A stretch of DNA of 64,000 nt from Cyclobacteriaceae bacterium (GTDB taxonomy: Bacteria > Bacteroidota > Bacteroidia > Cytophagales > Cyclobacteriaceae). Below the pieces are notes generated by a model. It searched no databases. It was not told the origin of the DNA and was given only the letters and a program-made list of their open reading frames with translations. The DNA is taken from assembly GCA_030584025.1 (NCBI GenBank), contig CP129487.1:1664158-1728157 (forward strand), read 5' to 3'. Positions 14,157 to 55,927 of the stretch are shown in pieces (position 1 is the stretch's first letter; each line of letters begins with the position of its first letter). Both the position numbers and the translations under genes were made by a program.

Positions 14157-14217
14157 ACCGTGTATTTAGTGGTTAAACTTAATAAAAGATAAAATACTCT
14201 TAATATAATTATACAAA

Positions 14218-14237
14218 AAAAGATAAATTAGTCCTTA
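14218..14237. promoter_or_regulatory. Candidate 20-bp operator (member of the recurrent palindrome family)
   Basis: AAAAGATAAATTAGTCCTTA. Its half-sites are AAAAGATAAA and TAAGGACTAA. It lies in the 94-nt divergent region between the qNOR gene and the tryptophanase gene. A weaker copy, AAAAGATAAAATACTCTTAA, is at 14185-14204. Confidence 0.5.
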
Positions 14238-14250
14238 AATAACCTGATAC

Positions 14251-15636
14251 ATGCAAGAAAATCCACGAAGGACCTTGGCTGAGCCCTTCCGTATTAAAAT
14301 GGTTGAGCCGTTGCGCATGACCACCGAGGTCTACCGGGAAAAGGCGCTTCGTCAGGCTGGTCATAATGCCTTTCTTCTTAAATCAGAAGATGTGTTTATT
14401 GACCTGCTTACCGACAGTGGAACTGGGGCGATGAGCGACCGTCAATGGGCAGGTATGATGATAGGTGATGAAAGTTATGCTGGGGCCCGAAGTTGGCAAC
14501 GGCTACAGGAAGTGGTGATGAAGTTATGCGGGATGCCTTATATACTTCCAACACATCAGGGACGGGCATCTGAACGAATCTTATATGGAATCACAGGTGG
14601 AAAAGGAAAGGTTTTCTTGAGCAATACCCATTTTGACACCACAAGAGCCAATATTGAATTTACCGGTGCCACAGCATTGGATCTAGTGCCTGAAGAAAGT
14701 GCAGACCTCGAACGGGAATTCCCCTTTAAGGGAAATATTGACCTTGAAAAGCTGGAGGCGGAAATCCGGAAGCATACCCCGAAGCATATTGCCGCAGTGA
14801 TAATGACAGTGACCAACAACTCCTCTGGAGGCCAGCCCGTGAGTATGGAAAATATGAAGGCGGTGCGGTCGGTGTGCAACCGCCATAAGCTGCTGCTTGT
14901 AATTGACGGATGCCGGATTGCTGAAAATAGTTATTTCATCCGTCACAGGGAGAAAGGATACGAGAGCAAAAGTTACTATAGCATTGCCGCAGAGATGCTG
15001 AACCTAAGTGATGCATTTGTGATGAGTGCCAAGAAAGACGGGTTGGTGAACATGGGTGGTCTGCTCTGCTTGAAGGATGAGGAACTCCACATTAAGTGCA
15101 CAAACATGCTCATTATTTCAGAAGGTTATACCACCTATGGTGGATTGTCAGGCAGGGATATGGAAGCCATGGCGGTGGGGCTGACCGAAGTTTTTGATCC
15201 AGATTATTTACAATACCGAATACGAAGTACAACTTATCTGGGCGAACACCTGAAGGCAAAAGGTGTACCTGTTGTATGGCCTATAGGAGGACACGCGGTT
15301 TATGTGAATGCGAAAAAGCTTTACCCAAACATTCCGGTTGAAGAATTTCCAGGACAAGTATTGGTTTGTGATCTTTATTTACGTGGGGGGATACGCTGTG
15401 TTGAAGTGGGCAGCGTAATGTTTGGCACGTACGATGAACAAGGCCGAATGAAACATGCGCGGCATGAACTAATGCGTATGGCTATTCCACGTAGGGTGTA
15501 TACGCAAAGCCATATCGACTATGTACTGGAGGTGTTTGATGATATCCTAGAAATGCGCGACAAGAAAAGAGGACTCAGGATCGTATACGAGCCACCTTTA
15601 CTCCGCCATTTCACAGCACGATTTGAAGCAATCTGA
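14251..15636 (+). CDS. tnaA: Tryptophanase (beta-eliminating lyase family; tyrosine phenol-lyase not excluded)
   Basis: 461 aa. Motifs seen are EPFRIKMVEP, FIDLLTDSGTGAMSDRQWAGMM.GDESYAG, PLP-Lys SAKKDGLVNMGG, MAIPRRVYTQSHIDYV and YEPPLLRHFTARFE. Confidence 0.8.
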   Translation: MQENPRRTLAEPFRIKMVEPLRMTTEVYREKALRQAGHNAFLLKSEDVFIDLLTDSGTGAMSDRQWAGMMIGDESYAGARSWQRLQEVVMKLCGMPYILPTHQGRASERILYGITGGKGKVFLSNTHFDTTRANIEFTGATALDLVPEESADLEREFPFKGNIDLEKLEAEIRKHTPKHIAAVIMTVTNNSSGGQPVSMENMKAVRSVCNRHKLLLVIDGCRIAENSYFIRHREKGYESKSYYSIAAEMLNLSDAFVMSAKKDGLVNMGGLLCLKDEELHIKCTNMLIISEGYTTYGGLSGRDMEAMAVGLTEVFDPDYLQYRIRSTTYLGEHLKAKGVPVVWPIGGHAVYVNAKKLYPNIPVEEFPGQVLVCDLYLRGGIRCVEVGSVMFGTYDEQGRMKHARHELMRMAIPRRVYTQSHIDYVLEVFDDILEMRDKKRGLRIVYEPPLLRHFTARFEAI

Positions 15637-15825
15637 TTCCGACCAATCATAATAACAATGAAAAGCATAACTGAGCCAATTCCTGACTATCTCAGGCCCG
15701 TAGTACGGGTAAGACCGGAACATTCCTGAGTCGTTTTGAAAGATAATATGTCAGATGATCCTAGGTTTAGTTCATGTAAAGTAAAACCTAAGCATGGCTG
15801 GAAGGCCATTGTTTCCGGAGAACTT

Positions 15826-17253
15826 TTAGTCCTTGATACAGCGTACAGAGACACCACAACCTTTACTGTAACTTCCTCTGCCTATGCCATTATTGATGTA
15901 ACTGAGCAGGTAGTACCAGGAACTGTAAGCATTGTACGCAGTGGAACTCCACCAATTACCGTATTTATCCGGTGGACCAAATGTTCCGTCTGGGTTACGG
16001 TAACTACCGGGCAAGCCTGCGAATCCACTGGTGTTTACACCGTTTCCCTTTTCATGCCAGGAGGATATGCTTTTCAGTGATAACCCACCCGAATCTTCAC
16101 CTCCTAAAGATTCAATCAAGATGGTCCACTCTTTAGTGGTGGGTATGTGCCATCCGATGGGCGCGAGACCGCGAGGGTCATTCACGGCATACCAATTATA
16201 CATTTTACCATAGATGTGACCATTGGCTGGATCATCTTCATAATAACACCAGGCGGGTCGTTTGTTGGCATCTGCACGACTCCACTCCTCTGGTGTTTTA
16301 GCTTCCGGTATCGGGTCGCCATTGGCAAAGTGATCAACATCCAGGTTTCGGCTCATCCATACCTGGGTGCCAATTGTGGTTGAGTTGAATGGATCAACAC
16401 TTTTATCCTTTTGTTTGACAATTGTTTCAGCGGGGGGCTCGGTTATGGTTTCCCGTTTGCTTGCGGGTTTAGTCATTGTTTCCTTAACTCCTGATCCGGG
16501 CGTGAAATAAAAATCTCCCGTATAATCCGAGGCAATCCAAGGGCGTTGCGCATCACCCGATGCTGCCGCTACATCTCGTGCCACATTCTTGAATACCTGT
16601 TCAATATTGAGGCCGGGTGAATTCATGTATTGCAATAACTTGGAGGTAAATAGGCCATTCCGTCCCTGACCATCACTAGCCACAGAGCCGGGCTTTGTGG
16701 CATACACGATATACGAGCCTTTTGGCGTAGCTACCATACTGAGCCCCTTTTCACCTGTACGACTGAAGCTGCGAAATGGATTAATTCTACAGGCATCCAC
16801 AATAAAAATATTCAATCCATTTCCGGCCTCTTCTATGGCGCGCATCACGTAATCCATGTTCACGCACTGGTCGTCAAGGTCTGCTTCTATTTGAGGATTA
16901 GCACTGGTTGGTATGAGGTAGTTCACACCTTTTACCTGCATGCCGTGACCCGAGTAAAAAACCAAACCGGTAGCATGAGGTTCAGTTTGCAGCAGCTTAA
17001 AGTACCGCAGGATACCGTCCAGCATCACACGTTTATTCATGGGATCATAAATTTCCACCACAGTAAATCCTTTTTTCTTCAGCGTTGAGGCCATATCAAC
17101 CGCATCATTCAGTGAATTCTTTAAAGGCGGAACATGCTGATAGGATTTTACACCGATCACAAGCGCATACTTCTCTTGCTGTGCCAGTATACGCTCACTT
17201 ATCGCACTGAATACCATCGCAGCAACAAGCATTTTGATCATCTGGTTTTTCAT
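15826..17253 (-). CDS. Secreted caspase (peptidase C14) domain protein with a C-terminal FISUMP domain
   Basis: The ORF extends to 17307, but the likely start is MKNQMIKMLVAAMVFSA (signal-like) at 17253. Caspase motifs are YALVIGV, YSGHGMQ and FIVDACR. The C-terminus TIGTQVWMSRNLDV...MYNWYAV...GWHIPT..EW...GFAGLPGSYR...VRCIKD matches the Fibrobacter-type paralogous domain. Confidence 0.75.
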   Translation of the reverse strand: MKNQMIKMLVAAMVFSAISERILAQQEKYALVIGVKSYQHVPPLKNSLNDAVDMASTLKKKGFTVVEIYDPMNKRVMLDGILRYFKLLQTEPHATGLVFYSGHGMQVKGVNYLIPTSANPQIEADLDDQCVNMDYVMRAIEEAGNGLNIFIVDACRINPFRSFSRTGEKGLSMVATPKGSYIVYATKPGSVASDGQGRNGLFTSKLLQYMNSPGLNIEQVFKNVARDVAAASGDAQRPWIASDYTGDFYFTPGSGVKETMTKPASKRETITEPPAETIVKQKDKSVDPFNSTTIGTQVWMSRNLDVDHFANGDPIPEAKTPEEWSRADANKRPAWCYYEDDPANGHIYGKMYNWYAVNDPRGLAPIGWHIPTTKEWTILIESLGGEDSGGLSLKSISSWHEKGNGVNTSGFAGLPGSYRNPDGTFGPPDKYGNWWSSTAYNAYSSWYYLLSYINNGIGRGSYSKGCGVSVRCIKD

Positions 17254-17390: not shown

Positions 17391-18068
17391 TCAATATTGT
17401 GCATAAGCCACTACCTGTTTCAGCAGGGTATCAAATTCCTGGGTGCTGATGTACTTATTTGCTTTCGGAAATACCACGTTCTCCTCACGGAAAAGGTGTA
17501 ACTTGAGTAGTTCAATGAGAGCGAATCCCTGTTCGGCAGCGACATCGAACGTTAACGCACGTGAAGTAACATCTGGCAGTCGTGTAGCCAGCGAAATAAA
17601 ATTGAACATGAGAGTCAGGTGCTGCATAATTTTCAAGTGGTCATCCTCCAGCATGTCAATGGCTGTTTTAGGAAACGGTCCTTTACTGTGCTCCTTGTGT
17701 TCGATTAGCCTTTTCTGTAATACCGGGAACAACACTTTCTCTTCCTTCAGGTGATGTTTCACCATGTGGTTGTCCATGTAGGAGAAGAACGTGTGAAAAC
17801 TCTTTTCGATATCGGGATGTCGTTGCCAACCATTTTGCTTAAAGGCAATCAGAGCTTGTTCAAACGCTTCCAATTCCTTTTTGGCTTGCGTGTGTTCATC
17901 CATAAATTGCTGCAAACACGGATGTAATTCATCGTAGGGCACCGTATCCACTACGGGTGGTGTAAAGGCTTCAGGTGGATCCATCGGTGAAAATTCTTCA
18001 ATCCCACTTTCCTTTTCAACCATCCGCTTCAATGGATCATTATTGTTTATTTTTTGTAAATCGATCAT
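17391..18068 (-). CDS. Hemerythrin-like (HHE cation-binding) domain protein, last gene of the nar cluster
   Basis: 225 aa. It has helical H/E-rich repeats (FMDEHTQAKKELE, MVKHHLKEEKVLFP, EDDHLKIMQH, LHLFREENVVFP). It starts 9 nt after narI. Confidence 0.6.
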   Translation of the reverse strand: MIDLQKINNNDPLKRMVEKESGIEEFSPMDPPEAFTPPVVDTVPYDELHPCLQQFMDEHTQAKKELEAFEQALIAFKQNGWQRHPDIEKSFHTFFSYMDNHMVKHHLKEEKVLFPVLQKRLIEHKEHSKGPFPKTAIDMLEDDHLKIMQHLTLMFNFISLATRLPDVTSRALTFDVAAEQGFALIELLKLHLFREENVVFPKANKYISTQEFDTLLKQVVAYAQY

Positions 18069-18077
18069 GTTGAAACA

Positions 18078-18806
18078 TTAGTTATTTCTTGGCCTATAAA
18101 CCGACCAGCCGTTGGCTGGATTTCGCACCTTGTTTTTGTTCCAGTTCCAGATTACCCGTTGATACGGCCGCCATAGGTAATCCAACGGGGCAACCAGTGC
18201 ATGCATCAGGCGTGAGAAGGGGAAGAGCATTACAATCAGGTAAGCTCCGATCACATGCAATTGGATAACGAGCGGCATCGCCACTACGGCATCCATGCGC
18301 GGCTCGAGTAAGAAAATGGACCACAAGTAAGGTGTAAGTGACGATGCAAACCAGGATGAACCCCAACGGTATTCGTAAGCTACCCACAATCCCAAAAACA
18401 CCTGTGCCAGTAACAGAATTTCCACCACATGATCCATCCAACTGGTTACCACCCGAATGCGGCCCTGCGTCCACCTACGGTAAATCAGGTTTGCCAGGCC
18501 AACCAGCATACTCAAACCAAAGGCAAAAGCAGCTACCTCCAGCACCAGTAAACGTACCGGGTGACTGTTCCACAGCAACACACTTTTTGGAATGAGAAAT
18601 GCGGTAAGGTGACCAAAGAAGAGAAAGAGCATACCCCAGTGAAACGGTACACTGCCCCAAAATAATTTCTTACCCTCCAGAAATTCGGATGACAGAGAGG
18701 AGATCTGAAACTTGACATTCCGGTACCGGTAAATGGTACCGATAAAAAATATAAACAAAGCCAGATAAGGAAGTATGATGAAGAAGAAGGTGTTAAGAAT
18801 AGTCAT
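18078..18806 (-). CDS. narI: Respiratory nitrate reductase gamma subunit
   Basis: 242 aa with about 5 TM helices. The N-terminus is the typical MTILNTFFFIILPYLALFIFFIGTIYRY. It occupies the position after narJ. Confidence 0.9.
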   Translation of the reverse strand: MTILNTFFFIILPYLALFIFFIGTIYRYRNVKFQISSLSSEFLEGKKLFWGSVPFHWGMLFLFFGHLTAFLIPKSVLLWNSHPVRLLVLEVAAFAFGLSMLVGLANLIYRRWTQGRIRVVTSWMDHVVEILLLAQVFLGLWVAYEYRWGSSWFASSLTPYLWSIFLLEPRMDAVVAMPLVIQLHVIGAYLIVMLFPFSRLMHALVAPLDYLWRPYQRVIWNWNKNKVRNPANGWSVYRPRNN

Positions 18807-18818
18807 AGTCTCGAAAGG

Positions 18819-19481
18819 TTATGGTTCTAATTTCATTTCAGTACTGATGCTGTTAAGGAAATCCGATGTTTTATCTTCAGTTACTTTTTCAAGATTAAAC
18901 TCAGAACGGAAAATTTCGAGTAGAACCATGAGCGGCCGCTGATATAACGTTCCGTAATCGCCTGGCATATCAATCAAGGTTTTGTGATGGCGCACATACA
19001 CTTCGTTTTTCTTGCCGAGGTGGTGGGGATCGAATTCTGAAACCATTTTCTTTAATCCCGGGAATACTACTTTGGCGGCCAGTTCATGCCTGAGTTCTGC
19101 ATCGGTCATTTTATCCATTAACCTGATCACATTGGGAAGATGATCGGCCAGTTCGTACCCGCAGTCGTTGGCGGCTGCGGTGTGCTCCCGGCTCAGGTTT
19201 ACCAGCAGTTCGGCACGCTTGTAGTCGTCACCAAAGAGCAGGTAGCCAACATCCAATGTGGTGATGGCCTGCACTTCAAAGGTGCGCGTGTGCAACTCCT
19301 GCATCTCATCCAGAGAGGCTGTGGAAACAAACTCGGTAAAGGGTTCCAGCACTTGGCCCAACTCAGGATAACAACCATCCAGGTAAAGCTGAATTTCCTT
19401 TACTTTTTCGGTAAAGCCTTCCAACGGAAAATCCGTGAGTGCCGACAACAAGGTTAATCTTGAATTTTTTGTCTTAATCAT
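18819..19481 (-). CDS. narJ: Nitrate reductase molybdenum cofactor assembly chaperone (TorD family)
   Basis: The ORF extends to 19553 but would then overlap narH. The Met at 19481 (MIKTKNSRL) leaves a 16-nt gap. Its position between narH and narI supports the call. Confidence 0.8.
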   Translation of the reverse strand: MIKTKNSRLTLLSALTDFPLEGFTEKVKEIQLYLDGCYPELGQVLEPFTEFVSTASLDEMQELHTRTFEVQAITTLDVGYLLFGDDYKRAELLVNLSREHTAAANDCGYELADHLPNVIRLMDKMTDAELRHELAAKVVFPGLKKMVSEFDPHHLGKKNEVYVRHHKTLIDMPGDYGTLYQRPLMVLLEIFRSEFNLEKVTEDKTSDFLNSISTEMKLEP

Positions 19482-19497
19482 ATCCTGTTTGTTTTCG

Positions 19498-21048
19498 TTA
19501 TGCACTGCGTAACGGTTCCGATTTAAATCCAAATCCAACAGAGCCACGGGCATCGCCTGGAAACTCCAGCATCTCCAGCGATTGCTCGCGGTGTGAAGCC
19601 GGTATCACAAATCGATCATCAAACTTGGCCAGCGAAGTGAGGTAGTAAATTGCTTCTGCCTCTTCGGCTGTCAGGTTGGTGTCTTTCATTACCTGGTCAA
19701 CCTTAGCCTGCTCCATATCGCCTACGGTTTTGCTTCTGCGATAAATACGCACGGCCATAAGCTTTTTCAGGATGTGCTTGATTTTCCCTTCGTCACCCGC
19801 ACTAAAGAGACTGGCCAGGTATTGTAAGGGAAAACGAGCTTGCTCAATGGTACCCCATAATTCCTCGGTGCTGGTATCATAAAGCCAGTTGTCGTTCCAG
19901 TACTTGGCGATGGGATCCATCTTCTCGGATTGTGCCTGGTTATCTACTTCACGCAGGGAGGCCATCACCGGTAACAAGGGTGGTACGTAGAACAACATGG
20001 GCAGGGTTCTGAATTCCGGATGTAACGGCAGGGCCAGTCCCCATTCTTTAACAAACTTGTAGGTTGGTGAATATTGAGCCGCTTTGATGGTTGAATCGGC
20101 CACACCATTTTTCTTGGCTGCTTCAATTACTTGTTCATTGAAGGGATCGAGGATCATGCTGAGTTGCCGATCTACCAGGTTATTCTCATCGCTGGATGCA
20201 GCATCATAAATCATGTCTGCATCATACAGGACTACGCCCAGGTAGCGTATGCGTCCAACACAAGAATGCATACAGGCAGGTGCATATCCGGCTTCAATTC
20301 TGGGGTAACACAGAATGCATTTCTCAGATTTACCAGTATGCCAGTTGTAATAGGATTTTTTATAGGGGCATGCCGTCACACACATCCGCCACGCCCGGCA
20401 AACATTCTGGTTGATCAACACCACACCATCTTCACCACGCTTGTAGATCGCACCGGAAGGACAGGAGGCTACGCAGGCAGGATTTAAACAATGGTTGCAG
20501 ATGCGTGGCAGGTAATAAAAGGCCATCCGCTCCAGCTGGAACATAGCTTCCTGCTCGGCAGGCGACAGGTTCTTCAGGTTTGGATCCTGTCGAGCATAAT
20601 CGGGTGTTCCGCTCAGGTCATCGTCCCAGTTAGGACCGCCTTTGATATCGATGGGTTTGCCTGTGATGAGCGAAACCGGCCTTGCCGTTGGTTGATCATC
20701 CATAGCGGGCGATTCAATCAGGTCGAGATACTTGTAGGTAAAAGGCTCGTAGTAATCATCAATTACCGGCAAGTGTGGGTTGTGAAAGATGTTCATCAAT
20801 CCACGCAGTTTACCTGCACCCTTCAAACTGATGTCACCATTCTTCTTTTCCCAACCGCCTTTGTAAATATTCTGATCTTCCCATTTTGTGGGATAACCGG
20901 TTCCCGGTTTGGTTTCTACATTATTCCACCATTGATATTCGGCTCCTTTACGGTCGGTCCATATATTTTTACAGGCAATGGAACAGGTATGACACCCGAT
21001 GCATTTATCGAGGTGAAAAACCATTGACATTTGTGCTCGTACATCCAT
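19498..21048 (-). CDS. narH: Respiratory nitrate reductase beta subunit
   Basis: 516 aa. MSMVFHLDKCIGCHTCSIACKNIWT...WWNNVETKPGTGYP, with multiple Fe-S Cys motifs. Confidence 0.95.
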   Translation of the reverse strand: MDVRAQMSMVFHLDKCIGCHTCSIACKNIWTDRKGAEYQWWNNVETKPGTGYPTKWEDQNIYKGGWEKKNGDISLKGAGKLRGLMNIFHNPHLPVIDDYYEPFTYKYLDLIESPAMDDQPTARPVSLITGKPIDIKGGPNWDDDLSGTPDYARQDPNLKNLSPAEQEAMFQLERMAFYYLPRICNHCLNPACVASCPSGAIYKRGEDGVVLINQNVCRAWRMCVTACPYKKSYYNWHTGKSEKCILCYPRIEAGYAPACMHSCVGRIRYLGVVLYDADMIYDAASSDENNLVDRQLSMILDPFNEQVIEAAKKNGVADSTIKAAQYSPTYKFVKEWGLALPLHPEFRTLPMLFYVPPLLPVMASLREVDNQAQSEKMDPIAKYWNDNWLYDTSTEELWGTIEQARFPLQYLASLFSAGDEGKIKHILKKLMAVRIYRRSKTVGDMEQAKVDQVMKDTNLTAEEAEAIYYLTSLAKFDDRFVIPASHREQSLEMLEFPGDARGSVGFGFKSEPLRSA

Positions 21049-21077
21049 GAGATTTCAGGTTTATGCGTTGGGAATTA

Positions 21078-24000
21078 TTACCATACTAATTTTTCCATCT
21101 TCTTTACAATTACGTGGGTATCGCGGTTTGGTGCGATTGGGCCCCAATAGTTGAAATGATAAGAAAACTGACCGTATCCACCGGTAAGGTAGTTCGGCTT
21201 CAAGTGTATGCGTGTGAAGCTGTTGTGTCCGCCACCACGCTTGTTACCCCGAACTTGTGATTTGGGGATACCTGTAGTTCGTTCCGGTACATGGTAAACA
21301 ATGCATACACCGCGTGGTATCCGTGAGCTTACACAAGCTCGCGTACAGTAAACACCGTGGTCGTTGTACACCTCTACCCAGTCGTTGTCTTTGATGCCGA
21401 GGTCTTCTGCATCTTTCTCATTGATCCAGCACGGTTCGCATCCCCGCGAAAGCGTGAGCATGCGCAAGTTCTCCATATACGTGGAGTGGATGTGCCATTT
21501 ACCATGCGGTGTGAGGCAGTTCAGCACTTTGGCCTGCTCGCGCTCCAGCGATTCCTTGAGATCACCGTATGCTTCTGGTTTGGGTGAAGGCTTATAGGTA
21601 GGAAGGTGCTCGCCATAGGCGATGTACAACTCATGATCCAGGTAGAAGTGTTGCCTGCCGGTAAGGGTTCTCCATGGAACCAATTTATCAACATTGTAGG
21701 TGTAGGCAGAGTAGGCACGACCATCCTGCATTAATCCCGACCAAAGTGGTGAGGAGTTGTACCTGCGCGGTTGTGCCTGCAGATCCCCGTATGTAATGCC
21801 AACCTGTTCATAGCCTTCACCGATATCCGATAACACAAGGCCGGTTTTTTTCTCTGCTTCCCGGTAGGCACGAACAGTAAGCTTGCCGTTGGTTAGCGTA
21901 GATAGTTTTAAAAGTATGTTGGCCGCATCCCGGTCTTCTTTTAATGACGGGAGCACGCTACCATTCATCCGTTCTTTCGGGAAGTGGTTTGATTCCATGA
22001 TTTCATCGTACACATCATCACACATGTAGTTGTTGCCGTGTGCACCAAGGCCACTCTTTTTGATACGGTCGCCAAGCGTGATGAACTTGTCGTATAATTT
22101 GGTATAATCACGATCTACCACGGCTATGCTGTGCATGGTTTTCCCTGGTATGGGTTCGCATTCGCCTTTGTACCAGTCTTTCACATGCCGTTGGGTAATC
22201 TCACCGGCAGAATCATGGGAAAGCGGTGAGCACACAATGTCCTTCTGCGGCTCACTCAAATGTTGCTTTGCTATTTCACTGGTGTGTTTGGCAATCAACT
22301 TAAAAATATCCCAGTCAGTTTTGGCTTCCCACACCGGTGCAATGGCTGCTGAAAGTGGGTGAATGAATGAGTGTAAGTCTGTACTGTTCAAGTCGGCCTT
22401 TTCATACCAACTTGCTGCGGGCAATACGATATCTGAATACAAGGCTGAAGAATCCATACGGAAGTTCAGGTCTACCACGAGGTCCATTTTTCCTTCCGGA
22501 GCCATGTCGTGCCACTTTACTTCATCGGTATGATCAGGTGAATCTTTGGCGATGCGGTTGGAGTGCGTACCCAAATAGTGTTTAAGTGCGTATTCATGCC
22601 CTTTCATGCTGCCCATGATGGCGTTGCCCCGCCAGATGAACCAAACTTTTGGATGATTTTCTTCTGCTTCAGGATCACCTACCGCATAGTGCAGTTTCTT
22701 TGCTTTCAGTTTTTCTACTGTATAATTTTTGATTTCATCATCCGTCTTTGCACCATTTTGCTGCGCTTCCTTGCTTAGCTCCAGTGTGTTTTGATTGAAT
22801 TGCGGATAGAATGGCATCCATCCCATGCGCACTGATTGGAATATCGTATCGGCTGTATGTTGTTGGGTCCATTTATTTTTTGGAACCGTATTGTATTTAG
22901 AAAACTGACCGTCATACCGATATTGACACGTGTTAATGTAATGCCACAGCGGTGCCTGCTGCAGGCGCGCGGCACTCTGCCAATCCTTACCAAAGGTGAG
23001 GGCACTCCATGAATCTACTGGTGCCAGCTTTTCCTGGCCTACATAGTGATTCATTCCACCACCATTTTTCCCAACGCAACCAGTAAGCATCAGGGCCATA
23101 ATACCTGCACGATACATCAGGTTGGCATGGTACCAGTGGTTAATCCCTGCACCTACAATGATCATGCATTTACCGCCTGTAAGGTTTGCTGTGTTTGCCC
23201 ATTCTTTGGCAAACTGAATGACTGTCTTTGAATCTACACCCGTGAAAATTTCCTGCCATGCCGGTGTATAGGCAGCATCCTTATCGGTGTAGTCTTTCGG
23301 ATAATCGCCCAGTAGCCCACGATCAACACCATATTGTGCCATCACCAGGTCATACACGGTTGTTACCGGAATTTTACCTGCGCTGGTTTGCAAATACTTT
23401 ACCGGAACGCCACGCTGACGATGCTTGTCCAATCCGAACTCGGTGAAGGTTACCTGAAGAACCTCATCACTATTATTGATCAGGGTGAGGTATGGATCAA
23501 AAGGCTGGTTATCGACTTCATGCTCCAGCTTTATGTTCCAGTTGCCACCTTTCTTTTCCCAGCGGTGTCCCATGGTTCCTTTCGGTACCACGAGTTTACC
23601 TGTCTTGCTGTCGATGTTCAGAAATTTCCAGTCGCCATTTTCAAGGCTACTGAACTCAGCCATTTCATTGGCGCGAACCAGTTGGCCAGGTACAAGTTTA
23701 CCGTCTTCCTCTTCAAGTTTTACCAGGAACGGACTGTCGGTGTATTGCTTGGTATAGTCTAAAAAATACGGAGTTTGTTTTTCGTGGTGCCACTCCTTTA
23801 ATATAATGTGCGTTACTGCCATCCAGAAGGCACCATCACTGCCGGCATGAACGGGCACCCATTGATCGGCATACTTGCACACCTGGCTGAAATCAGGTGA
23901 GAACACCACGGCCTTGGTTCCGTTATGTCTGGACTCAGCAAAAAAGTGACAGTCGGGTGTGCGGGTCATGTTCAGGCAGGCACCCATATCAGCAATCATC

Positions 24001-24692
24001 TTGGCGTTGTACCAATCGGCACTTTCGCACACATCGGTTTGTTCGCCCCATATTTCGGGGAAGGCGGTGGGCAGATCGCAGTACCAATCGTAGAAGCTCA
24101 GGTTCACCCCTCCAAAGAGTTGAAGGAATCGGGCGCCTGCCGCATAGCTCAGCATGGACATGGCCGGTATGGGTGAAAACCCTATAACGCGATCAGGGCC
24201 GTATTTTTTGGCGGTGTAAATATTGGCGGCAGCAATCAGTTCCATCACCTCGTCCCAGGTTACCCTTCTGAAGCCACCTTTTCCGCGTGCGTTCTGGTAT
24301 TTCTTTCTTTTTTCTGCGTTGGCCTGCAGGCTTGCCCAGGCTTTAACCGGATCACCTGCCTTCTTTTTTTCTTCACGCCAGGCATCGATCAATGCTCCGC
24401 GAATAAGGGGATACTTAATGCGAAGCGGGCTATATAAATACCAAGAAAAAGAAATACCCCGTTGGCAACCGCGCGGCTCATAAGGTGGGAGCGAACTTTC
24501 CAGTAATGGATAGTCGAGTTGTTGGGTTTCCCATACCACGATACCATCTTTCACATGGATTTGCCAGGAGCACCCACCCGTGCAATTCACGCCATGGGTA
24601 CTTCGCACTATGCGATCATGCTGAAAGCGGTTGCGGTAAAACTCTTCCCACTTACGGGTCTGTGGCGATATGATGTCTTCAATCCAGCTCAT
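21078..24692 (-). CDS. narG: Respiratory nitrate reductase alpha subunit; no Tat signal
   Basis: 1204 aa. The N-terminus is ...[44 protein letters not shown]. Confidence 0.95.
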
Positions 24693-24708
24693 AAATATTG
24701 GTTAAGAA

Positions 24709-25578
24709 TTATGAATAAACCTGACGATCAAAAATTTTCTTGTTTACGGCATTCTTTTTTCGGTTCGACCACACCATGGAAAAGATAACCAACAATGCGA
24801 TAAAGCTTGCACCCCCACTTAACAAGAAGAAATGTTGCCAGTTGCGCGGGTATTGCCCGAATTGATCTTCATCTGCTTGTTTGAGAAAAGCTGTAAGGGC
24901 GTAGGCTTCCTGTTCTGAAACCGGGTGGTTTAAATATGCTTCTCGCATGGCTGGAAATGGGGGAGAGGTTAGGATTGCCTGGATACCCGCTTCATTCATT
25001 CGGGAAAAAGCATCGGTTAAATCCTTGGCTAATAGTCCGCCTCCAATCAACGCGTTATTTTTAACATGATGACAGGAAATGCAACCGGGACCCCCTTCAC
25101 CCAACTTTGTTTCTCCTGTGAATAGCAATTGCCCCAACTTGATTTCGCTTTCAGTAGCTTCATTCACTGAACGTACCGGTTGTTTGGGTTCCTCGGGAAT
25201 TGATGATGTAGTTGACTCAGTCGTGGCTACGAAACCGGGGCTTTTCGATTTTATATAGCCAATGATTTCCTTAATCTGATCAATCGAATAGGGCGCATCA
25301 GGCATCACAGTTTTATTGTATTCCTCAAAAAGGGCAACCGCATCGGGATCTCCTTTGCTAACCATAGCTTGTGATGATTTAATGAATTCTGCTAGCCAAT
25401 CATCTGACCTTCGAAGTTGTACATCGGCCAGATCGGGCCCTATCAGCCTACCTTTAGATATGGTGTGACAGGCTGAACAGAATGTTTTAAACATCATTTC
25501 ACCTGATTGTTGGGCGTAGGCGGCAAATATCCCCACGCAAAATACAAGGGTGGTTAAACCGAGTTTTACTGTTTTCAT
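24709..25578 (-). CDS. Membrane-anchored dihaem cytochrome c (NarC-like), first gene of the nar cluster
   Basis: 289 aa with an N-terminal signal. There are two CxxCH motifs (CSACH, CISCH) and a C-terminal TM helix (FFLLSGGASFIALLVIFSMVW). It ends 16 nt upstream of narG. Confidence 0.75.
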   Translation of the reverse strand: MKTVKLGLTTLVFCVGIFAAYAQQSGEMMFKTFCSACHTISKGRLIGPDLADVQLRRSDDWLAEFIKSSQAMVSKGDPDAVALFEEYNKTVMPDAPYSIDQIKEIIGYIKSKSPGFVATTESTTSSIPEEPKQPVRSVNEATESEIKLGQLLFTGETKLGEGGPGCISCHHVKNNALIGGGLLAKDLTDAFSRMNEAGIQAILTSPPFPAMREAYLNHPVSEQEAYALTAFLKQADEDQFGQYPRNWQHFFLLSGGASFIALLVIFSMVWSNRKKNAVNKKIFDRQVYS

Positions 25579-25630
25579 TGAAGGGTGGTTGATGGTTCTG
25601 ATATAAATATCTGCTTTTTGATTATCTAAT

Positions 25631-25650
25631 AAAAGATAATATTATCTTTT
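25631..25650. promoter_or_regulatory. Perfect 20-bp palindrome (candidate operator)
   Basis: AAAAGATAAT|ATTATCTTTT in the 98-nt divergent region between the narC-like gene and the MORN-repeat gene. Confidence 0.55.
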
Positions 25651-26850: not shown

Positions 26851-26852
26851 AA

Positions 26853-27371: not shown

Positions 27372-27382
27372 ACTTCTTCGTA

Positions 27383-27955: not shown

Positions 27956-27958
27956 GTT

Positions 27959-40352: not shown

Positions 40353-40354
40353 TA

Positions 40355-41299: not shown

Positions 41300-41343
41300 A
41301 TTTTCTGGCGGTTGTGTACCTTTAAGTAAGACTTCAACTATCT

Positions 41344-43071
41344 ATGAACGGAGGAGAAATCATCGCCCGCCTGCTGAAGCAACAAGGTGTAAGATTTTTG
41401 TTTACCCTGAGTGGCGGACACATTTCTCCGATATTTGTGGAGGCCGAAAAACAAGGCATACGGGTAATCGATACCCGGCACGAAGTGACGGCAGCATTTG
41501 CTGCCGATGCTGTTGCACGTCTCACAGGAATACCCGGTGTGGCGACCGTAACTGCGGGTCCGGGAATTACCAACACCATTACAGCCATTAAGAATGCTCA
41601 ACTGGCGCAATCGCCCCTGGTACTTTTGGGAGGAGCGGTGGCTACACTGTTGCAGGGCAGGGGAGCACTCCAGGATATTGATCAGCTTTCGTTAATGCGC
41701 CCAATCGTAAAATGGGCAGCACGCATTACAAAAGTAAAAGAGATTGAAAGGGTACTTAGCAGGGCTTTCTATGAAGCAACCCGTGGCGTACCTGGGCCGG
41801 TGTTTGTGGAATGCCCGGTTGATATTCTTTATCCGGAGAATATTGTGCGTGAATGGTATGGAATTAAATCACATGAGGTACCGCCTAAAAATATAATTCA
41901 ACGTATGGAACGTTGGTATATTAATAGGCATGCTCGAAAATTATTTGAAGACGTAAACTTTAAAGAGCACTCTGGCCATGTTAAAGATGCAAGTGTTCCT
42001 TACCACGCTACATCCGATTTAAAAAATGCATTAAGCAAGCTCAATGGTTCAAAAAAGCCCGTTTTGGTAATCGGTAGTGGTGCCATCATGAATGCCCAAA
42101 AAGCAAATGCACTGTCCGATGCTGTCAATAGATTGGGATTACCGGTTTATCTCAGCGGTATGGCCCGGGGCTTGTTAAGAACCGATCATCCCATACAGCT
42201 GCGTCATCACCGGAAGGAGGCTATCCGGGATGCTGATCTGATCATCCTCGCTGGTGTACCAAATGATTTTCGACTGGATTACGGAAATCACATTGGCCAT
42301 ACACCTTTTATTTCTATCAACAGAAGCCGGCTGGATTTATACCAAAATAAAAAGCCAACCCTGGCAGTGCAGGCCGATCCGCAAGAATTTTTGATCGCAT
42401 TGGCCGATCACTATCAGGGTAAATACACGGAATGGATAGGGAATTTGCGCAGTCGCGATAACCAACGCGAAGAAAAAATCAATACCATGTCGGAAGAAGT
42501 GCAAGCAGGTATTAACCCGTTAACACTTTTCCGGGTACTGAATACGCTGTTAGACAAGAACACAATATTGATTGCCGATGGTGGTGACTTTGTGGCTACA
42601 GCTGCTTACACGCTTCGGCCGGCAGCTCCGCTCTCGTGGCTCGATCCGGGTGTGTTTGGCACATTGGGTGTAGGTGCAGGATTTGCCCTGGGAGCAAAAC
42701 TTGTTTATCCCGAAAAGGATGTTTGGATAATTTATGGAGATGGAAGCGCAGGCTACAGCCTGATGGAGTTCGATACGTTTACACGTCATCAACTACCTGT
42801 TGTTGCGCTAATTGGCAATGACGGGTGCTGGGGCCAAATTGCCCGCGACCAGGTAACCCTGTTGAAGAGCGAATGTGCTGTGAACCTGCGACAATCCAAT
42901 TACGAAAAAGTTGCGCATGCTTTTGGTGCCGAAGGAGTTCGGGTAGAAAGCATTGAAGACTTTAGTGATTCGGTTACCCTTGCATTGAGCAAGAGCCGTA
43001 GCGGTGTTCCATTTATCATCAATGCCATCATTAGTAAAAGCGATTTCAGAAAGGGTTCCATCTCTATGTAA
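41344..43071 (+). CDS. Thiamine-diphosphate enzyme, acetolactate synthase / 2-hydroxyacyl-CoA lyase-like
   Basis: 575 aa. Motifs are [26 protein letters not shown] and the TPP motif [14 protein letters not shown]....NDG. Confidence 0.8.
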
Positions 43072-43082
43072 ACAGCAAACAG

Positions 43083-44912
43083 ATGACACAACCAACCCGA
43101 CTATTTGATTTATTGGATGAGCAGGCTATGGCTCAACCCAATCAACTTTTTTTGTCATCAAAAAAACAGCCGGGTAACCCAATGGAGTGGAGGGGCTACA
43201 CGTATCAGGATGTAAAAAATGTAGTTAACCAAACCAGTCAGCTTTTGCTAAATCTGGGTTTACAGCACGGTGATACTGTAGCCATTATTTCATCGAACCG
43301 ACCGGAATGGAATTTTGTTGACCTCGGGGCATTACAGGTTGGCATCATCAATATACCGATGTATCCTACCTTCTCGGAACATGATTATGAATTTATACTT
43401 CAGGATGCCGAAGTGTGTTTTGTGTTTGCCGAAGATGAAATAATTATAAGCAAGGTGATGGCGGTGCGCAATAACTGCCCAACCCTGAAGGGCGTCATTA
43501 GTTTTGAGTGCTCACTAGATGCAGATTACTTCTGGGATATATTGCCTGCACTGGATACCATTGGTCACGACAAAATTAAGTTGAAAAAGAAATCCCTTTC
43601 TCCAGAACACTTGGCCACCATTATTTATACATCCGGTACAACGGGTAACCCGAAAGGGGTGATGCTGACGCACCAGAACCTGATGAGTAATATCAAGAGT
43701 GTGAAGCAGGTTTTGCCTTTGGGTGGCGGAAGGAAGTCGTTGAGCTTTCTTCCGTTGTGCCACAGTTTTGAGCGTACGGTATTCTATGTATACCTGTGCT
43801 TTGGTATTCATATCAGCTATGCTGAAAGTCTGGATACACTTGTTGATAACCTGAAGGATGTTAAGCCTTATTGTTTCACAACGGTACCCCGTTTACTCGA
43901 GAAAGTTTACGAAAAAATTATGGCTAAAGGTGCAGTGCTGGAGGGTATTAAAAAGAAACTCTTTTACTGGTCTATTGCGGTGGGTGAGCAATACCGCATT
44001 GGAGAAAAGCAGGGATTAATTTATGGTATAAAGCTCGGCCTTGCACGCAAGCTGGTGTTTTCAAAATGGCTGGAAGTGATGGGCGGTGAAGTGAAATATA
44101 TCATCACGGGTGCTGCGGCTATGCAACCCAGGCTGATCACCTTATTTACGGCTGCGGGTATCGGTATCATTGAAGGCTACGGCCTAACGGAGACTTCCCC
44201 TGTGCTTACCGTAAATGGGTATGCGGAATCTGATCGGTGTGTAGGTTCAGTGGGCATGGCCATTCCGGGTGTGGAGATTGAACTGGCTGCCGATGGGGAA
44301 GTGCTTGCGCGTGGCCCCAACATAATGAAGGGTTATTACAAACGGCCTGACCTCACCGCAGAGGTGATTCAGTCTGATGGATGGTTTCATACGGGTGACA
44401 TAGGAACGTGGATAGAACGTAACGGTAAAAAATTTTTAAAAATCACCGATAGGAAAAAAGAACTCTTTAAAACGGCTGGAGGAAAATATGTTGCTCCGCA
44501 AGTTATTGAAATGAAAATGAAGGAGATCAAATACATTGAGCAGATTATGGTGGTAGGGGGTGATGACAAAAAGTTTATAGCGGCATTGATTGTTCCCTCA
44601 CAGGTGCAGGTTCGCGAATGGGCGGAGCAAAAGGGGTTGCGAATTATTTCACGGAGTGAATTGATAGCTCATCAAGAAGTGAGGGAAATGCTTCAGGCAG
44701 AGGTGAATGCCTGCAACACGCATTTCGGGCAGTGGGAGCAAATAAAAAAGATAACCTTGCTGGCTGATGAATGGTCACCGGCTACTGGTGAATTAACACC
44801 AACCATGAAGCTGAAGCGGAAGGCCATTTATACAAAATATAAAGATCTCATTCAGGCTATGTATCAAGAGGGTAGCGACTCAGGCATGGAAGGGTATGAA
44901 CGTGTTTATTGA
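43083..44912 (+). CDS. Long-chain acyl-CoA synthetase (AMP-forming)
   Basis: 609 aa. Motifs are IIYTSGTTGNPKGVMLTHQNL, GYGLTETSP, WFHTGDIG and TPTMKLKRK. Confidence 0.85.
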   Translation: MTQPTRLFDLLDEQAMAQPNQLFLSSKKQPGNPMEWRGYTYQDVKNVVNQTSQLLLNLGLQHGDTVAIISSNRPEWNFVDLGALQVGIINIPMYPTFSEHDYEFILQDAEVCFVFAEDEIIISKVMAVRNNCPTLKGVISFECSLDADYFWDILPALDTIGHDKIKLKKKSLSPEHLATIIYTSGTTGNPKGVMLTHQNLMSNIKSVKQVLPLGGGRKSLSFLPLCHSFERTVFYVYLCFGIHISYAESLDTLVDNLKDVKPYCFTTVPRLLEKVYEKIMAKGAVLEGIKKKLFYWSIAVGEQYRIGEKQGLIYGIKLGLARKLVFSKWLEVMGGEVKYIITGAAAMQPRLITLFTAAGIGIIEGYGLTETSPVLTVNGYAESDRCVGSVGMAIPGVEIELAADGEVLARGPNIMKGYYKRPDLTAEVIQSDGWFHTGDIGTWIERNGKKFLKITDRKKELFKTAGGKYVAPQVIEMKMKEIKYIEQIMVVGGDDKKFIAALIVPSQVQVREWAEQKGLRIISRSELIAHQEVREMLQAEVNACNTHFGQWEQIKKITLLADEWSPATGELTPTMKLKRKAIYTKYKDLIQAMYQEGSDSGMEGYERVY

Positions 44913-48243: not shown

Positions 48244-48248
48244 AATAA

Positions 48249-52366: not shown

Positions 52367-52367
52367 G

Positions 52368-52847: not shown

Positions 52848-52859
52848 GATTCCTTTATT

Positions 52860-53976: not shown

Positions 53977-54159
53977 ACAGGACTAAGAAAAAGGCCGAGC
54001 CAACCCATAGTACACTTGATAGGAAATGCACGGATCGCAGAATGGAAAGATAATAATACATATGGAAATGTTTTGTAGAGGTTTTGTCAATGTAGCGGTT
54101 CATGTAAATTCTTGTAAAAGGGTTTCAGTTGAAAACTAAAAATTACACGCTACATTAAA

Positions 54160-54179
54160 AAAGGACTAAAATATCCTGT
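54160..54179. promoter_or_regulatory. Candidate 20-bp operator 7 nt upstream of a -7 box
   Basis: AAAGGACTAAAATATCCTGT, followed by TAATTTTG at 54187-54194. Confidence 0.5.
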
Positions 54180-54233
54180 AATAATCTAATTTTGCGGTGA
54201 TCGAAAGGGTGTTTTAATAATCTAACGGGCAGG

Positions 54234-54899
54234 ATGGCCGACAGAAATAATTCTAAATCAATGCCGATGTATTCCCAAAATGAAGAAAGAGCCAACTGGA
54301 TAACCCATGGCTTGGCTGTGTTGTTAAGCCTGATGGGCAGTGGCTTTATGTGTTTCGCGCTGATGAAATACAATCATTCTGTTGGGGTGTGGTTATGCGT
54401 GGGGGTGTACCTGATTTCATTACTTGCTTTATACACAGCGTCAACCTTGTATCATTTTGTCAAGGAGGAAAAATGGAAGCACATTTTTCGGGTGGCGGAT
54501 CACAGTGCTATCTATTCCAAAATTGCGGGCACGTATACTCCCTTTCTTGTTCTGGCAATTCCGAATCAACTGGGGTATGAATTGCTGATGGCTTTATGGC
54601 TTCTTGCCGGGGTTGGAGTATTATTCAAAATATTTTTTGTACGGAAACTGAACTTTCTCTCCACCCTGATTTACCTGGGCATGGGTTGGATGGCTTTAGG
54701 GGTTATTGTTCCCCTTTTTAAAGCGCTGCAACCAATAATTTTTTGGTTAATCATAGCGGGTGGAATTTTTTTTACCGTAGGTGTGATTTTTTACCTATTA
54801 CGCAACATGCGCTATAGCCACGCCATATGGCATGGGTTTGTTATGGTTGGAAGTGCCTGTCATTTTAGCGGCATATACCTGTTTCTGAGTACCAGTTAG
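54234..54899 (+). CDS. Hemolysin III / PAQR-family membrane protein
   Basis: 221 aa with 7 TM helices. EERANWITHG...STLYH...ADHSAIY...HAIWH are the conserved His/Asp positions of the family. Confidence 0.85.
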   Translation: MADRNNSKSMPMYSQNEERANWITHGLAVLLSLMGSGFMCFALMKYNHSVGVWLCVGVYLISLLALYTASTLYHFVKEEKWKHIFRVADHSAIYSKIAGTYTPFLVLAIPNQLGYELLMALWLLAGVGVLFKIFFVRKLNFLSTLIYLGMGWMALGVIVPLFKALQPIIFWLIIAGGIFFTVGVIFYLLRNMRYSHAIWHGFVMVGSACHFSGIYLFLSTS

Positions 54900-54930
54900 T
54901 TCGCGGGGATATTTCAAATCAATTTCGTCA

Positions 54931-54976
54931 GATAAAGATAAAGCCTGCCCGAATGAGCAGGCTTTATCTTTATTTT
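54931..54976. terminator. Strong bidirectional rho-independent terminator
   Basis: 15-bp perfect stem AAAGATAAAGCCTGC / GCAGGCTTTATCTTT (54934-54948 and 54957-54971) with an 8-nt loop. It is flanked by A/T runs and lies between convergent genes. Confidence 0.75.
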
Positions 54977-55009
54977 AGGTGTTGAAGCCTAGCTATTGCA
55001 GCCGAATCA

Positions 55010-55753
55010 TTACGATTTACCCAATAATTCCTGTTCCAGTTTAAGTGCCTTAGGAAACAGGATGTTATTTTCCAGGTGTATATGTTGGTGGAGATCCTGC
55101 AGAAATTCCTGGAATTTAGCAAATAAGACCCGGTAAGACATACATGCTTCCTGCGGAGGAGTAAAGTGATTGCTGAGTGTTTCAATGGATTCCATGGAAC
55201 TCCCTGCTGACGTATGTTCGGCTTCCATCATATTAATTGGATTGGCTATGGTACCAAAGGGAGGGGACTGGATTGATGTATTATTTCGGCTGGCTTCAAC
55301 CAGTTTCTTAATGTACGGGAAAAGAATCATCTCTTCCTTGCGCATGTGTTGAGTGAGCTCATCGATGACATCTGCCGCATGCTTTTCGATCTCAAGCAAT
55401 TCCGGATGATAATCACCGTGCACGCGGGATACCTTATGGCATAATTCATCTATGAATGGGATGGCTTCCTTAACATAGCTATGATGATTGTTAATGATGT
55501 AATCGGCCAGAAAGTCCAATTCCCAAGCATTGAAATTTTGGGCATTGATAATTCCTTTGCTTTCTATCTCTCTCAGCTCAGTTTCTACCTGTGTGGGATC
55601 AACGCCTTTTCGTGCGCACGCTTCTTCGACAGATTGCTTTCCTCCACAACAAAAATCAATACCATACTTTTTAAAAACTTCAGCTTTACGCCAATCTTGT
55701 GATACTAATTCACCTACGGTAAGTTGTGCAGATGTTGGAAATGCTGTGTTCAT
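55010..55753 (-). CDS. ytfE: Iron-sulfur cluster repair di-iron protein (RIC; YtfE/ScdA)
   Basis: 247 aa. TVGELVSQDWRKAEVFKKYGIDFCCGGKQSVEEAC, plus hemerythrin-like H/E motifs. Confidence 0.9.
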   Translation of the reverse strand: MNTAFPTSAQLTVGELVSQDWRKAEVFKKYGIDFCCGGKQSVEEACARKGVDPTQVETELREIESKGIINAQNFNAWELDFLADYIINNHHSYVKEAIPFIDELCHKVSRVHGDYHPELLEIEKHAADVIDELTQHMRKEEMILFPYIKKLVEASRNNTSIQSPPFGTIANPINMMEAEHTSAGSSMESIETLSNHFTPPQEACMSYRVLFAKFQEFLQDLHQHIHLENNILFPKALKLEQELLGKS

Positions 55754-55860
55754 TGATAATGGGGTTTAATTTGTCAACGGTTATTAATTATGGCGCAGTT
55801 TAATACTTATAGGCATGCCGGTAATATGAGCCAGATCATATCAAAATATTTACCATGTTT

Positions 55861-55880
55861 AAAAGACTAAAATATCTTCT
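55861..55880. promoter_or_regulatory. Candidate 20-bp operator 7 nt upstream of a -7 box
   Basis: AAAAGACTAAAATATCTTCT, followed by TAAGTTTG at 55888-55895. It lies in the divergent region between ytfE and the thioesterase gene. Confidence 0.5.
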
Positions 55881-55927
55881 ATATCGCTAAGTTTGCGCTC
55901 ATTTTCAGGCGTTAATTGATCGTTGCA

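Follow-up and report, generated by a model that had tools for sequence, protein, structure and literature searches.

NsrR regulons have been described in Proteobacteria, Bacillus and Streptomyces, with the operator consensus gATGyAT-N5-ATrCATc (PMC1274295). In Bacteroides and Porphyromonas, HcpR, a regulator of the Crp/Fnr family, controls hcp (PMC1274295). Rrf2 genes were also found beside the clade II nos clusters of Bacteroidetes, with no site being defined (PMC6264515). In the literature searched, RegPrecise being outside its scope, no description was found of the operator studied here or of an NsrR-type regulon in Bacteroidota. To our knowledge, nitric oxide (NO) sensing is essentially uncharted in this phylum, members of which are abundant denitrifiers acting as N2O sources or sinks in soil, sediment and wastewater. 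The present analysis deals with a 64-kb stretch of a Cyclobacteriaceae contig (G+C 42.8%), hereafter the window, in which seven copies of a 20-bp palindrome lie between genes. A previous reading of the letters only (the sequence-only reading) had proposed that these copies define a single local regulon of nitrate and NO genes, with an Rrf2 protein encoded in the window as candidate regulator. The palindrome is real, and it is conserved across Bacteroidota beside one subfamily of Rrf2 proteins. With a probability of about 0.7, we consider that WAARGAY-N6-RTCYTTW is the operator of the Rrf2 protein encoded at 36432-36890, and that this protein is an NsrR-like, NO-responsive repressor.

A palindrome conserved across Bacteroidota

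The window was searched for the pattern AAARGAYWAWWTWRTCYTTT with up to three mismatches. Exactly the seven sites listed by the sequence-only reading were returned, as compared to a mean of 0.83 matches in dinucleotide shuffles, none of 100 shuffles reaching seven. All seven copies are intergenic and they are spread over six intergenic regions. A symmetrised position weight matrix (PWM), trained on the six strong sites, gave 22-28 bits for these and 14.4 bits for the seventh. This weak copy exists as announced, though its best register is 14184-14203 instead of 14185-14204. The next best position in the 64 kb, at 46491 within an RND pump gene, reached 12.1 bits. The clean score gap below the seventh site shows that, as had been claimed, no copy lies in coding sequence of the window. 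The putative operators are as follows, with their PWM scores.

14184..14203, weak tandem operator AAAAGATAAAATACTCTTAA, 28 nt upstream of the qNOR start codon (14.4 bits)
14218..14237, operator between qNOR (minus strand) and tnaA (plus strand), ending 13 nt before the tnaA ATG (23.6 bits)
25631..25650, perfect-palindrome operator between the cytochrome c (cyt c)-narGHJI operon (minus strand) and MORN-CMD (plus strand) (27.8 bits)
34517..34536, operator upstream of the 608-aa gene and Rrf2 (plus strand), and of OsmC (minus strand) (25.2 bits)
39130..39149, operator between the cyt c/heme-copper oxidase (HCO)-like (NorCB-like)-PTPS genes (minus strand) and GNAT-nadA-TPP-AMP-binding (plus strand) (25.1 bits)
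54160..54179, operator upstream of the PAQR/hemolysin-III gene (22.0 bits)
55861..55880, operator between ytfE/RIC (minus strand) and thioesterase-nadB-ctaA-U32 (plus strand) (22.2 bits)

The GATAAT-ATTATC stretch of site 25631 prompted us to consider a Fur box. This candidate was rejected, since no other copy resembles a Fur box, the six central positions are simply rich in A and T from site to site, and the genes served include none for iron uptake.

Conservation was measured in two samples, the motif scans covering the window and these fetched loci. The first sample consists of 80 loci (1.36 Mb) around orthologues of the window Rrf2 protein (46-74% identity) from Cytophagales, Flavobacteriales, Chitinophagales, Sphingobacteriales and Bacteroidales. 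The second consists of 80 metagenome loci (572 kb) picked by ytfE rather than by Rrf2. Open reading frames (ORFs) of the loci were called crudely, as the longest ATG ORFs, and labelled by BLASTP against the window proteins. Because the PWM is circular, having been trained on the sites under test, all 5-mer inverted dyads with spacers of 0-12 were also enumerated in the non-coding DNA of the Rrf2 loci (206 kb), the window data being left unused. The top dyad was AAAGA-N8-TCTTT, with 61 occurrences observed for 0.6 expected. Other registers of the same motif were also high (AAAAG-N10-CTTTT, 38 vs 1.0; AAGAC-N6-GTCTT, 21 vs 0.4), and the second-ranked dyad, TAAAA-N5-TTTTA, mostly reflected overlap with the same sites. 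At a threshold of at least 17 bits, the PWM detected 110 sites in the Rrf2 loci, 108 of them in 210 kb of non-coding DNA and two in 1.15 Mb of coding DNA; shuffled non-coding DNA of the same loci gave 0.6 sites. In relatives, the motif is therefore nearly restricted to non-coding DNA. The consensus of the 79 unique sites is WAARGAYwwwwwwRTCYTTW, in which G5 A6 and T15 C16 are essentially invariant. In the sample chosen by ytfE, 26 sites were non-coding and none was coding, and a site stood directly upstream of ytfE in 17 of 77 ytfE loci. This rediscovery of the motif independently of the window, together with the fact that the same kinds of genes are served, supports the proposal of a single regulon with Rrf2 as candidate regulator.

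The regulator gene is itself linked to the motif, as had been noticed in the window. A site is found at most 300 nt upstream of Rrf2, or of the first gene of its operon, in 30 of the 80 loci. In Flavobacterium species, TAAAGATAAATTTGTCTTTT is located 44 nt before the Rrf2 ATG. When the DNA preceding the 608-aa gene was aligned for 11 genomes (footprint A3), conservation was confined to the palindrome and the -7 promoter box.

A palindrome need not be the operator of a protein. It could form a hairpin or a terminator, belong to a family of small dispersed repeats, or take part in promoters read by an alternative sigma factor. The element is AT-rich, several copies in relatives are found just past the Rrf2 stop codon and, as RNA, sites 25631 and 34517 fold well (-9.3 and -8.0 kcal/mol, respectively). 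However, the four other strong sites of the window have no stable fold, and symmetric positions do not co-vary: among the four half-site combinations, the most frequent (44 of 104) pairs GAC with the non-complementary ATC (C facing A). This independent variation of the half-sites and the absence of folding at four of six sites argue for an element recognised, as double-stranded DNA, by a symmetric protein. The hairpin or terminator reading was rejected on the basis of the folding energies and of the absence of compensatory change. Moreover, the copies stand upstream of genes, at fixed short distances from the -7 box, and not at 3′ ends, and it is the sequence, not the structure, that is conserved over phylum-level distances. 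As for a sigma factor recognition element, the dyad symmetry and the variable offset to the -7 box speak against it. Overall, we consider it very improbable that the palindrome is anything but a protein operator.

The Rrf2 protein and the promoters that it may control

The only transcription factors recognised in the window with Pfam and NCBIfam are the Rrf2 protein and one TetR.

36432..36890, plus strand, Rrf2-family regulator of 152 aa, proposed operator-binding repressor

The protein matches PF02082 with E=5.6e-27 (94.9 bits for a cut-off of 30) and TIGR00738 with 97.6 bits (cut-off 73.3). All 24 orthologues compared (68-78% identity) share residues C93, C100, C106 and H109, and likewise C6 and E7. 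HMMER alignments place H109 opposite His107 of IscR and the three cysteines within the IscR ligand loop, while the invariant Glu7 lies near the position of ScNsrR Asp8, as deduced from alignment offsets. The equivalog cut-offs were missed for NsrR (NF008240, 37.9 bits vs 182), for IscR (TIGR02010, 61.2 vs 207.55; NF008110, 42.7 vs 275) and for RirA (52.5 vs 193). A search of the PDB returned distant solved relatives, the best being IscR (E ~1e-8), with ScNsrR at 7e-6. Taken together, the Rrf2 domain, the ligand residues and the failed NsrR, IscR and RirA cut-offs point to a cluster-binding Rrf2 protein of its own subfamily. The sequence-only reading had compared the case with NsrR-type Rrf2 proteins. 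The term NsrR-type applies to the regulatory logic but not to family membership, since the cut-offs failed and the operator is not an NsrR box. The likeness to the AAGAT...ATCTT ends then ascribed to NsrR sites proved superficial, the spacing being AAGAY-N6-RTCTT here vs gATGyAT-N5-ATrCATc (PMC1274295).

The Rrf2 protein could bind the palindrome and sense another signal, such as O2, redox state or Fe-S/iron status, as is the case for IscR, RsrR and RirA, or it could be no simple repressor and activate some promoters, like IscR. Its closest solved relatives are IscR and RsrR, ahead of ScNsrR, and its Cys3-His pattern matches the IscR ligands. In addition, nadA, NrdD, ctaA and the U32-family protein are Fe-S- or oxygen-related functions of the regulon, and sites located at about -60 beside FNR-like boxes, described below, could be co-activating. 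Against this, no isc, suf or iron-uptake genes are found among the served genes, the most frequent targets (NO reductase, NirK, RIC/YtfE) being the classical NO set. In anaerobic Bacteroidales, the minimal unit is a single site followed by ytfE and then Rrf2 (L035, L045, L056), and the overlap with the core promoter at most sites fits repression. We therefore consider another signal, or a mode of action other than simple repression, unlikely. NO as the signal is suggested by the content of the regulon, with NO reductases, NirK and RIC/YtfE, combined with the sensor chemistry of Fe-S Rrf2 proteins.

Promoters were searched for directly with the Bacteroidota -7 box, TAnnTTTG; a sigma-70 scan was not used since Bacteroidota promoters differ. 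The four -7 boxes that had been reported 7-8 nt from palindromes were found at the expected positions. A fifth box, missed earlier, was detected at 39154-39161 on the plus strand, so that site 39130 has boxes on both strands.

34545..34552, plus strand, -7 box TACTTTTG, 8 nt downstream of the operator, with the ATG (34559) 6 nt further on
39115..39122, minus strand, -7 box TACTTTTG of the cyt c/HCO operon, 7 nt from the operator
39154..39161, plus strand, -7 box TAAATTTG of GNAT-nadA, 4 nt from operator 39130
54187..54194, plus strand, -7 box TAATTTTG, 7 nt after the operator
55888..55895, plus strand, -7 box TAAGTTTG, 7 nt after the operator

At the GNAT orthologues of three relatives (L010, L016, L021), the offset from operator to -7 box is 5-7 nt. 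In the loci, the distance between a site and an exact match to TAnnTTTG on the same strand as the gene served was 2-8 nt in 34 cases and 13-18 nt in 26, with peaks at 7 nt (16 cases) and at 14-16 nt (22 cases). In Bacteroides and Flavobacterium promoters, the -33 element lies roughly 17-23 nt upstream of the -7 box. With offsets of 2-8 and 13-18 nt, all such sites therefore cover the -33/spacer region. In the Rrf2 promoters of Flavobacterium, the TTTG within the site lies 20 nt from the -7 box, indicating that the -33 element is embedded in the operator. A dimer bound over the -33/spacer region should exclude RNA polymerase, hence our preference for a repressor. The sequence-only reading had placed the palindrome where the -33 element should be, a position judged suitable for either a repressor or a class-II-like activator. 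The placement holds, and the site positions favour the first option and disfavour the second.

A different arrangement is observed at 13 sites of the loci. There, an FNR-like box, TGAT-N4-ATCA, follows the palindrome by 3-4 nt. Where a -7 box can be identified, the FNR-like box has its centre close to -41.5, and that of the palindrome is at about -60. Such composite sites occur in nirK promoters of Flavobacterium and in cyt c promoters of Chitinophagales and Allomuricauda.

Composite of palindrome and TGAT-N4-ATCA: L048 18739, L050 18936, L067 18814, L071 12660, L030-L032 ~10450, L079 876, L082 970

TGAT-N4-ATCA is also found beside half-degenerate variants of the palindrome at tnaA/ytfE promoters (L008, L009, L013). 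In the window, no FNR box with at most one mismatch was found in intergenic DNA, and none was convincing near the sites. The composite sites suggest joint control by a Crp/Fnr protein and the Rrf2 protein; judging from this arrangement, what Rrf2 blocks or modulates there may be a Crp/Fnr activator and not RNA polymerase.

These boxes bear on another explanation, in which a different transcription factor, whose gene lies elsewhere, binds the palindrome, for instance a Crp/Fnr-type activator akin to DNR, NnrR or HcpR, Rrf2 being a mere member of the regulon. In many bacteria, denitrification genes are under the control of Crp/Fnr proteins, and so is hcp in Bacteroides and Porphyromonas (PMC1274295). 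With its 5-6-5 layout, ARGAY-N6-RTCYT is built overall like a CRP box, and the co-localisation of Rrf2 with the motif is circumstantial evidence. However, no Crp/Fnr gene was recognised in the window with Pfam and NCBIfam, the core is GA-N8-TC vs TGA-N6-TCA in CRP/FNR boxes, and the separate TGAT-N4-ATCA box beside the palindrome in 13 promoters implies that a Crp/Fnr protein would have its own site there. Most sites lie 2-18 nt from the -7 box, as compared to about -41.5 or -61.5 for TTGAT-N4-ATCAA/TGTGA-N6-TCACA, and those at 2-8 nt cannot serve a class I or class II activator. Finally, over the five orders, Rrf2 is the only gene whose link to the motif is constant. Binding of the palindrome by such a factor thus appears quite improbable.

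Several observations nevertheless weigh against an NO-responsive repressor of the Rrf2 family acting at these sites. No site of at least 17 bits is present within 10 kb in 27 of the 80 orthologue loci; in some of them half-degenerate variants, AAAAGAC-N6-RTCCGAT, precede tnaA or ytfE (L008, L009, L013), and in others Rrf2 ends a long hydrogenase-like/SulP operon whose head is beyond the fetched DNA. Many Flavobacterium loci are closely related, so that the counts do not represent independent events. Near roughly half of the site-gene pairs a canonical TAnnTTTG is missing, and the 13 sites just upstream of FNR-like boxes, at about -60 where a -7 box is identifiable, are not at a classical repressor position. 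Some served genes (tnaA, PAQR, GNAT, MORN) have no obvious link with NO, and co-localisation is compatible with a regulator encoded elsewhere. Finally, half-site centres are about 14-15 bp apart in IscR and NsrR operators. Here they are about 10 bp apart, so that the geometry would differ from that of the solved Rrf2-DNA complex.

In Aequorivita and other Flavobacteriaceae (L076, L078, L081), two tandem Rrf2 paralogues, 50% and 42% identical to the window protein, adjoin cyt c-HCO-nadA-nadB and ytfE. No PWM match of at least 13 bits was found in these three loci, in which the operator may have diverged.

Genes behind the putative operators and a possible mechanism

A gene was paired with a site when it pointed away from it at a distance of at most 350 nt, and unlabelled genes were checked with Pfam. 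In the 80 loci, the genes most often served are Rrf2 (18 pairs), qNOR (15), the 608-aa gene (14), cyt c (10) and a PLP-dependent enzyme of class I/II aminotransferase fold (10). They are followed by nadA, ytfE and NirK fused to cyt c (7 each), NrdD (5), RNR-like (4), and tnaA, RIC_DUF1858 and GNAT (3 each). For the window, Pfam and NCBIfam agree with the names that the sequence-only reading had given to qNOR, tnaA, narGHJI, MORN, Rrf2, the cyt c/HCO pair, GNAT-nadA, PAQR, ytfE and thioesterase-nadB-ctaA-U32. The predicted targets are the following.

9211..14156, minus strand, qNOR, RIC-like hemerythrin/DUF1858 protein and RNR-like protein, target unit (Pfam, NCBIfam)
14251..15636, plus strand, tnaA-like beta-eliminating lyase, target with conserved sites
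17391..25578, minus strand, cyt c, narG, narH, narJ, narI and hemerythrin, target unit with the site kept in L010, L016 and L029
36879..39079, minus strand, cyt c (135 aa), heme-copper oxidase-like protein (488 aa) and PTPS, target unit
39186..44912, plus strand, GNAT protein, nadA, TPP enzyme and AMP-binding enzyme, target unit
54234..54899, plus strand, PAQR/HlyIII membrane protein, target
55010..55753, minus strand, ytfE/RIC Fe-S repair protein, probable target with the site 107 nt upstream
55916..60147, plus strand, thioesterase, nadB, ctaA and U32 peptidase-family protein, target unit

No canonical -7 box was seen on the ytfE side of operator 55861. In the closest relative (L085), separate sites are kept at ytfE and at thioesterase-nadB-ctaA, and nadA has its own site in seven loci, in agreement with the earlier statement that both NAD genes sit behind operators. 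Other arrangements of the window also recur. Tandem sites 33-45 bp apart precede qNOR in L006, L019 and L020, as at 14184/14218, and in L010, L016 and L028 a site stands immediately before tnaA. The distance of 52 nt between site 25631 and the cyt c gene is the same in L010, L016 and L029. Sites orthologous to 39130 are present in L010, L016, L021 and L029, and sites adjoin PAQR orthologues in L086 and L087. In Flavobacterium, an azurin gene lies between Rrf2 and qNOR; in some loci, the gene of an HPP-family membrane protein lies just upstream of Rrf2, and in L046 NosZ is found downstream of it, an arrangement like that noted for Bacteroidetes nos clusters (PMC6264515).

The first gene behind operator 34517 had been read as a pair of ORFs of no known function (198 and 413 aa). 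It is a single gene, split by a 1-nt deletion.

34559..36384, plus strand, 608-aa gene at the head of the Rrf2 operon, frameshifted at ~35140

Four independent metagenome contigs (L001-L004), otherwise 99.9% identical, have GGG where the window has GG, and they carry one uninterrupted gene (8127-9953 in L001). The frameshift of the window is thus either a sequencing error or the mark of a recent pseudogene. The 608-aa gene heads the Rrf2 operon in Cytophagales, with a site upstream in 14 loci. Its product has no Pfam match. The family counts at least 8000 homologues at E <= 1e-5, the top matches being 60-83% identical, and its members nearly always bear the annotation hypothetical. An AlphaFold model of mediocre quality (pLDDT 65.7) shows an N-terminal half of alternating beta/alpha elements. 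With Foldseek, weak similarity (E 2e-3, TM ~0.3) was obtained to FMN TIM-barrel enzymes (PfaD, FabK, DfnA-ER and 2-nitropropane dioxygenase/nitronate monooxygenase), which include enoyl reductases, and one JGI record labels a homologue 'nitropropane dioxygenase family'. On this predicted fold, the likeness to FMN TIM-barrels is suggestive and does not amount to an assignment. In the 48-nt gap between this gene and Rrf2 (36385-36431), TAAATTTTTG resembles a -7 box except for an additional T. Rrf2 may thus also be transcribed from a weak promoter located in this gap.

Other features of the window were noted near these genes. A block, (A)TAGATATTTATC, located at 25590-25625 between the palindrome and the start of cyt c-narG, is conserved in four genomes (the window, L010, L016, L029). 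The cyt c-narG promoter has no canonical -7 box, and the block may be a site for another factor. Behind operator 39130, the 135-aa cyt c and the 488-aa HCO-like protein (37273-39079, minus strand) form a NorC/NorB-like pair. The latter protein matches Pfam COX1 with E=5.5e-32 and ccoN weakly. From these matches, the pair is a candidate for a second NO reductase besides qNOR; newer HCO families have been described and offer an alternative to cNOR for the HCO-like protein (PMC11214002).

In the qNOR operon, the 616-aa RNR-like protein (9211-11061, minus strand) shows weak matches to the RNR barrel domain (E=2e-8) and to a B12-RNR insertion domain. It has its own operator in L014, L022, L026 and L027, and in Flavobacterium an operator precedes NrdD (as in L062, 7026-9143). 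The response thus seems to include alternative RNRs. The products of an operon on the minus strand (26569-31257), situated between the nar and Rrf2 clusters, are a 748-aa molybdopterin oxidoreductase, a 4Fe-4S protein, a Rieske protein, a DUF6755 protein and a QmoC/TmcC-like membrane protein; this operon carries no copy of the palindrome.

The following mechanism may be envisaged from the sequence data. An Rrf2 dimer carrying an Fe-S cluster would bind the palindrome, each monomer contacting one GAY half-site. As judged from their positions, the operators overlie the -33/spacer region of sigma-A promoters, directly upstream of TAnnTTTG, and the bound protein would keep RNA polymerase off the promoter. 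NO produced by nitrate and nitrite respiration would damage the cluster and release the repressor. Release would turn on NO removal by qNOR and the NorCB-like enzyme, Fe-S repair by two RIC/YtfE-type proteins, and the nitrate reductase operon. NO-sensitive functions would be replaced or resupplied through NadA/NadB for NAD, the RNR-like enzyme and heme A synthase. The same is predicted for tnaA, for the PAQR protein and for the operon that comprises the 608-aa gene and Rrf2, the latter implying negative autoregulation. In relatives, the same operator also stands before NirK, azurin and NrdD.

Comparison with known systems

A broader proposal seems to us evenly balanced between true and false. 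It holds that a separate Rrf2 subfamily, orthologous to neither NsrR nor IscR, would be the phylum-wide master repressor of NO and denitrification genes in Bacteroidota, with three features taken jointly. These are a compact operator with half-sites one helical turn apart; a fixed composite with an FNR-like box at nirK, tnaA/ytfE and some cyt c promoters of relatives; and the coupling of NO stress to nadA/nadB, to an RNR switch (NrdD or class-II-like), to tryptophanase and to the very large 608-aa family, which may be a flavin-dependent enzyme acting on nitrogen-oxide species.

The operator and its candidate regulator would allow the prediction of NO-responsive genes in thousands of Bacteroidota genomes and metagenome-assembled genomes. 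They would also help to assign functions to co-regulated unknowns, mainly the 608-aa family, the RNR-like protein and the NorCB-like HCO. Since nadA/nadB and alternative RNRs are linked to the operator, NO-sensitive enzymes may be replaced during the response. If true, the operator would be a third, independently evolved type for NO-responsive Rrf2 proteins, and it would bear on half-site spacing in the family.

With NsrR, the system shares an Rrf2 winged-helix protein with three conserved C-terminal cysteines, an AT-rich inverted-repeat operator overlapping promoters, a regulator gene often linked to its targets, and predicted targets comprising NO reductase, copper nitrite reductase and RIC/YtfE/DnrN-type repair proteins. 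The Neisseria NsrR regulon (aniA/nirK, norB, dnrN) is the nearest in content. However, the operator described here is 20 bp long and even, with a GA-N8-TC core and without the ATG/CAT core, and the window regulator has an invariant His109 that aligns with the IscR-type fourth ligand. No hmp was seen among the targets, and the regulon extends to nadA/nadB, NrdD, the RNR-like protein, tnaA, PAQR and the 608-aa gene.

IscR is the best-scoring solved relative, and its Cys-Cys-Cys-His ligand positions align with those of the window protein. In contrast, no isc or suf genes are found in the window or among the genes served, and the type 1 and type 2 operators of IscR, of 25-26 bp, are unlike the window operator. 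RirA belongs to the same Rrf2 family, and its IRO box, TGA-N9-TCA, is likewise a short dyad in which roughly one helical turn separates the half-site centres (GA-N9-TC vs GA-N8-TC here). One-turn half-site geometry is thus possible for an Rrf2 protein. The RirA system differs by its flanking bases, and no iron-uptake genes belong to the regulon described here.

HcpR controls the only NO/nitrite-responsive regulon previously inferred for the phylum in PMC1274295. It differs in being a Crp/Fnr activator, with a box GTAAC-N4-GTTAC and a regulon essentially limited to hcp. Overall, the comparison of sequences indicates that the system of the window most likely follows the logic of NsrR, with a new operator and a regulator from a distinct subfamily of Rrf2 proteins.

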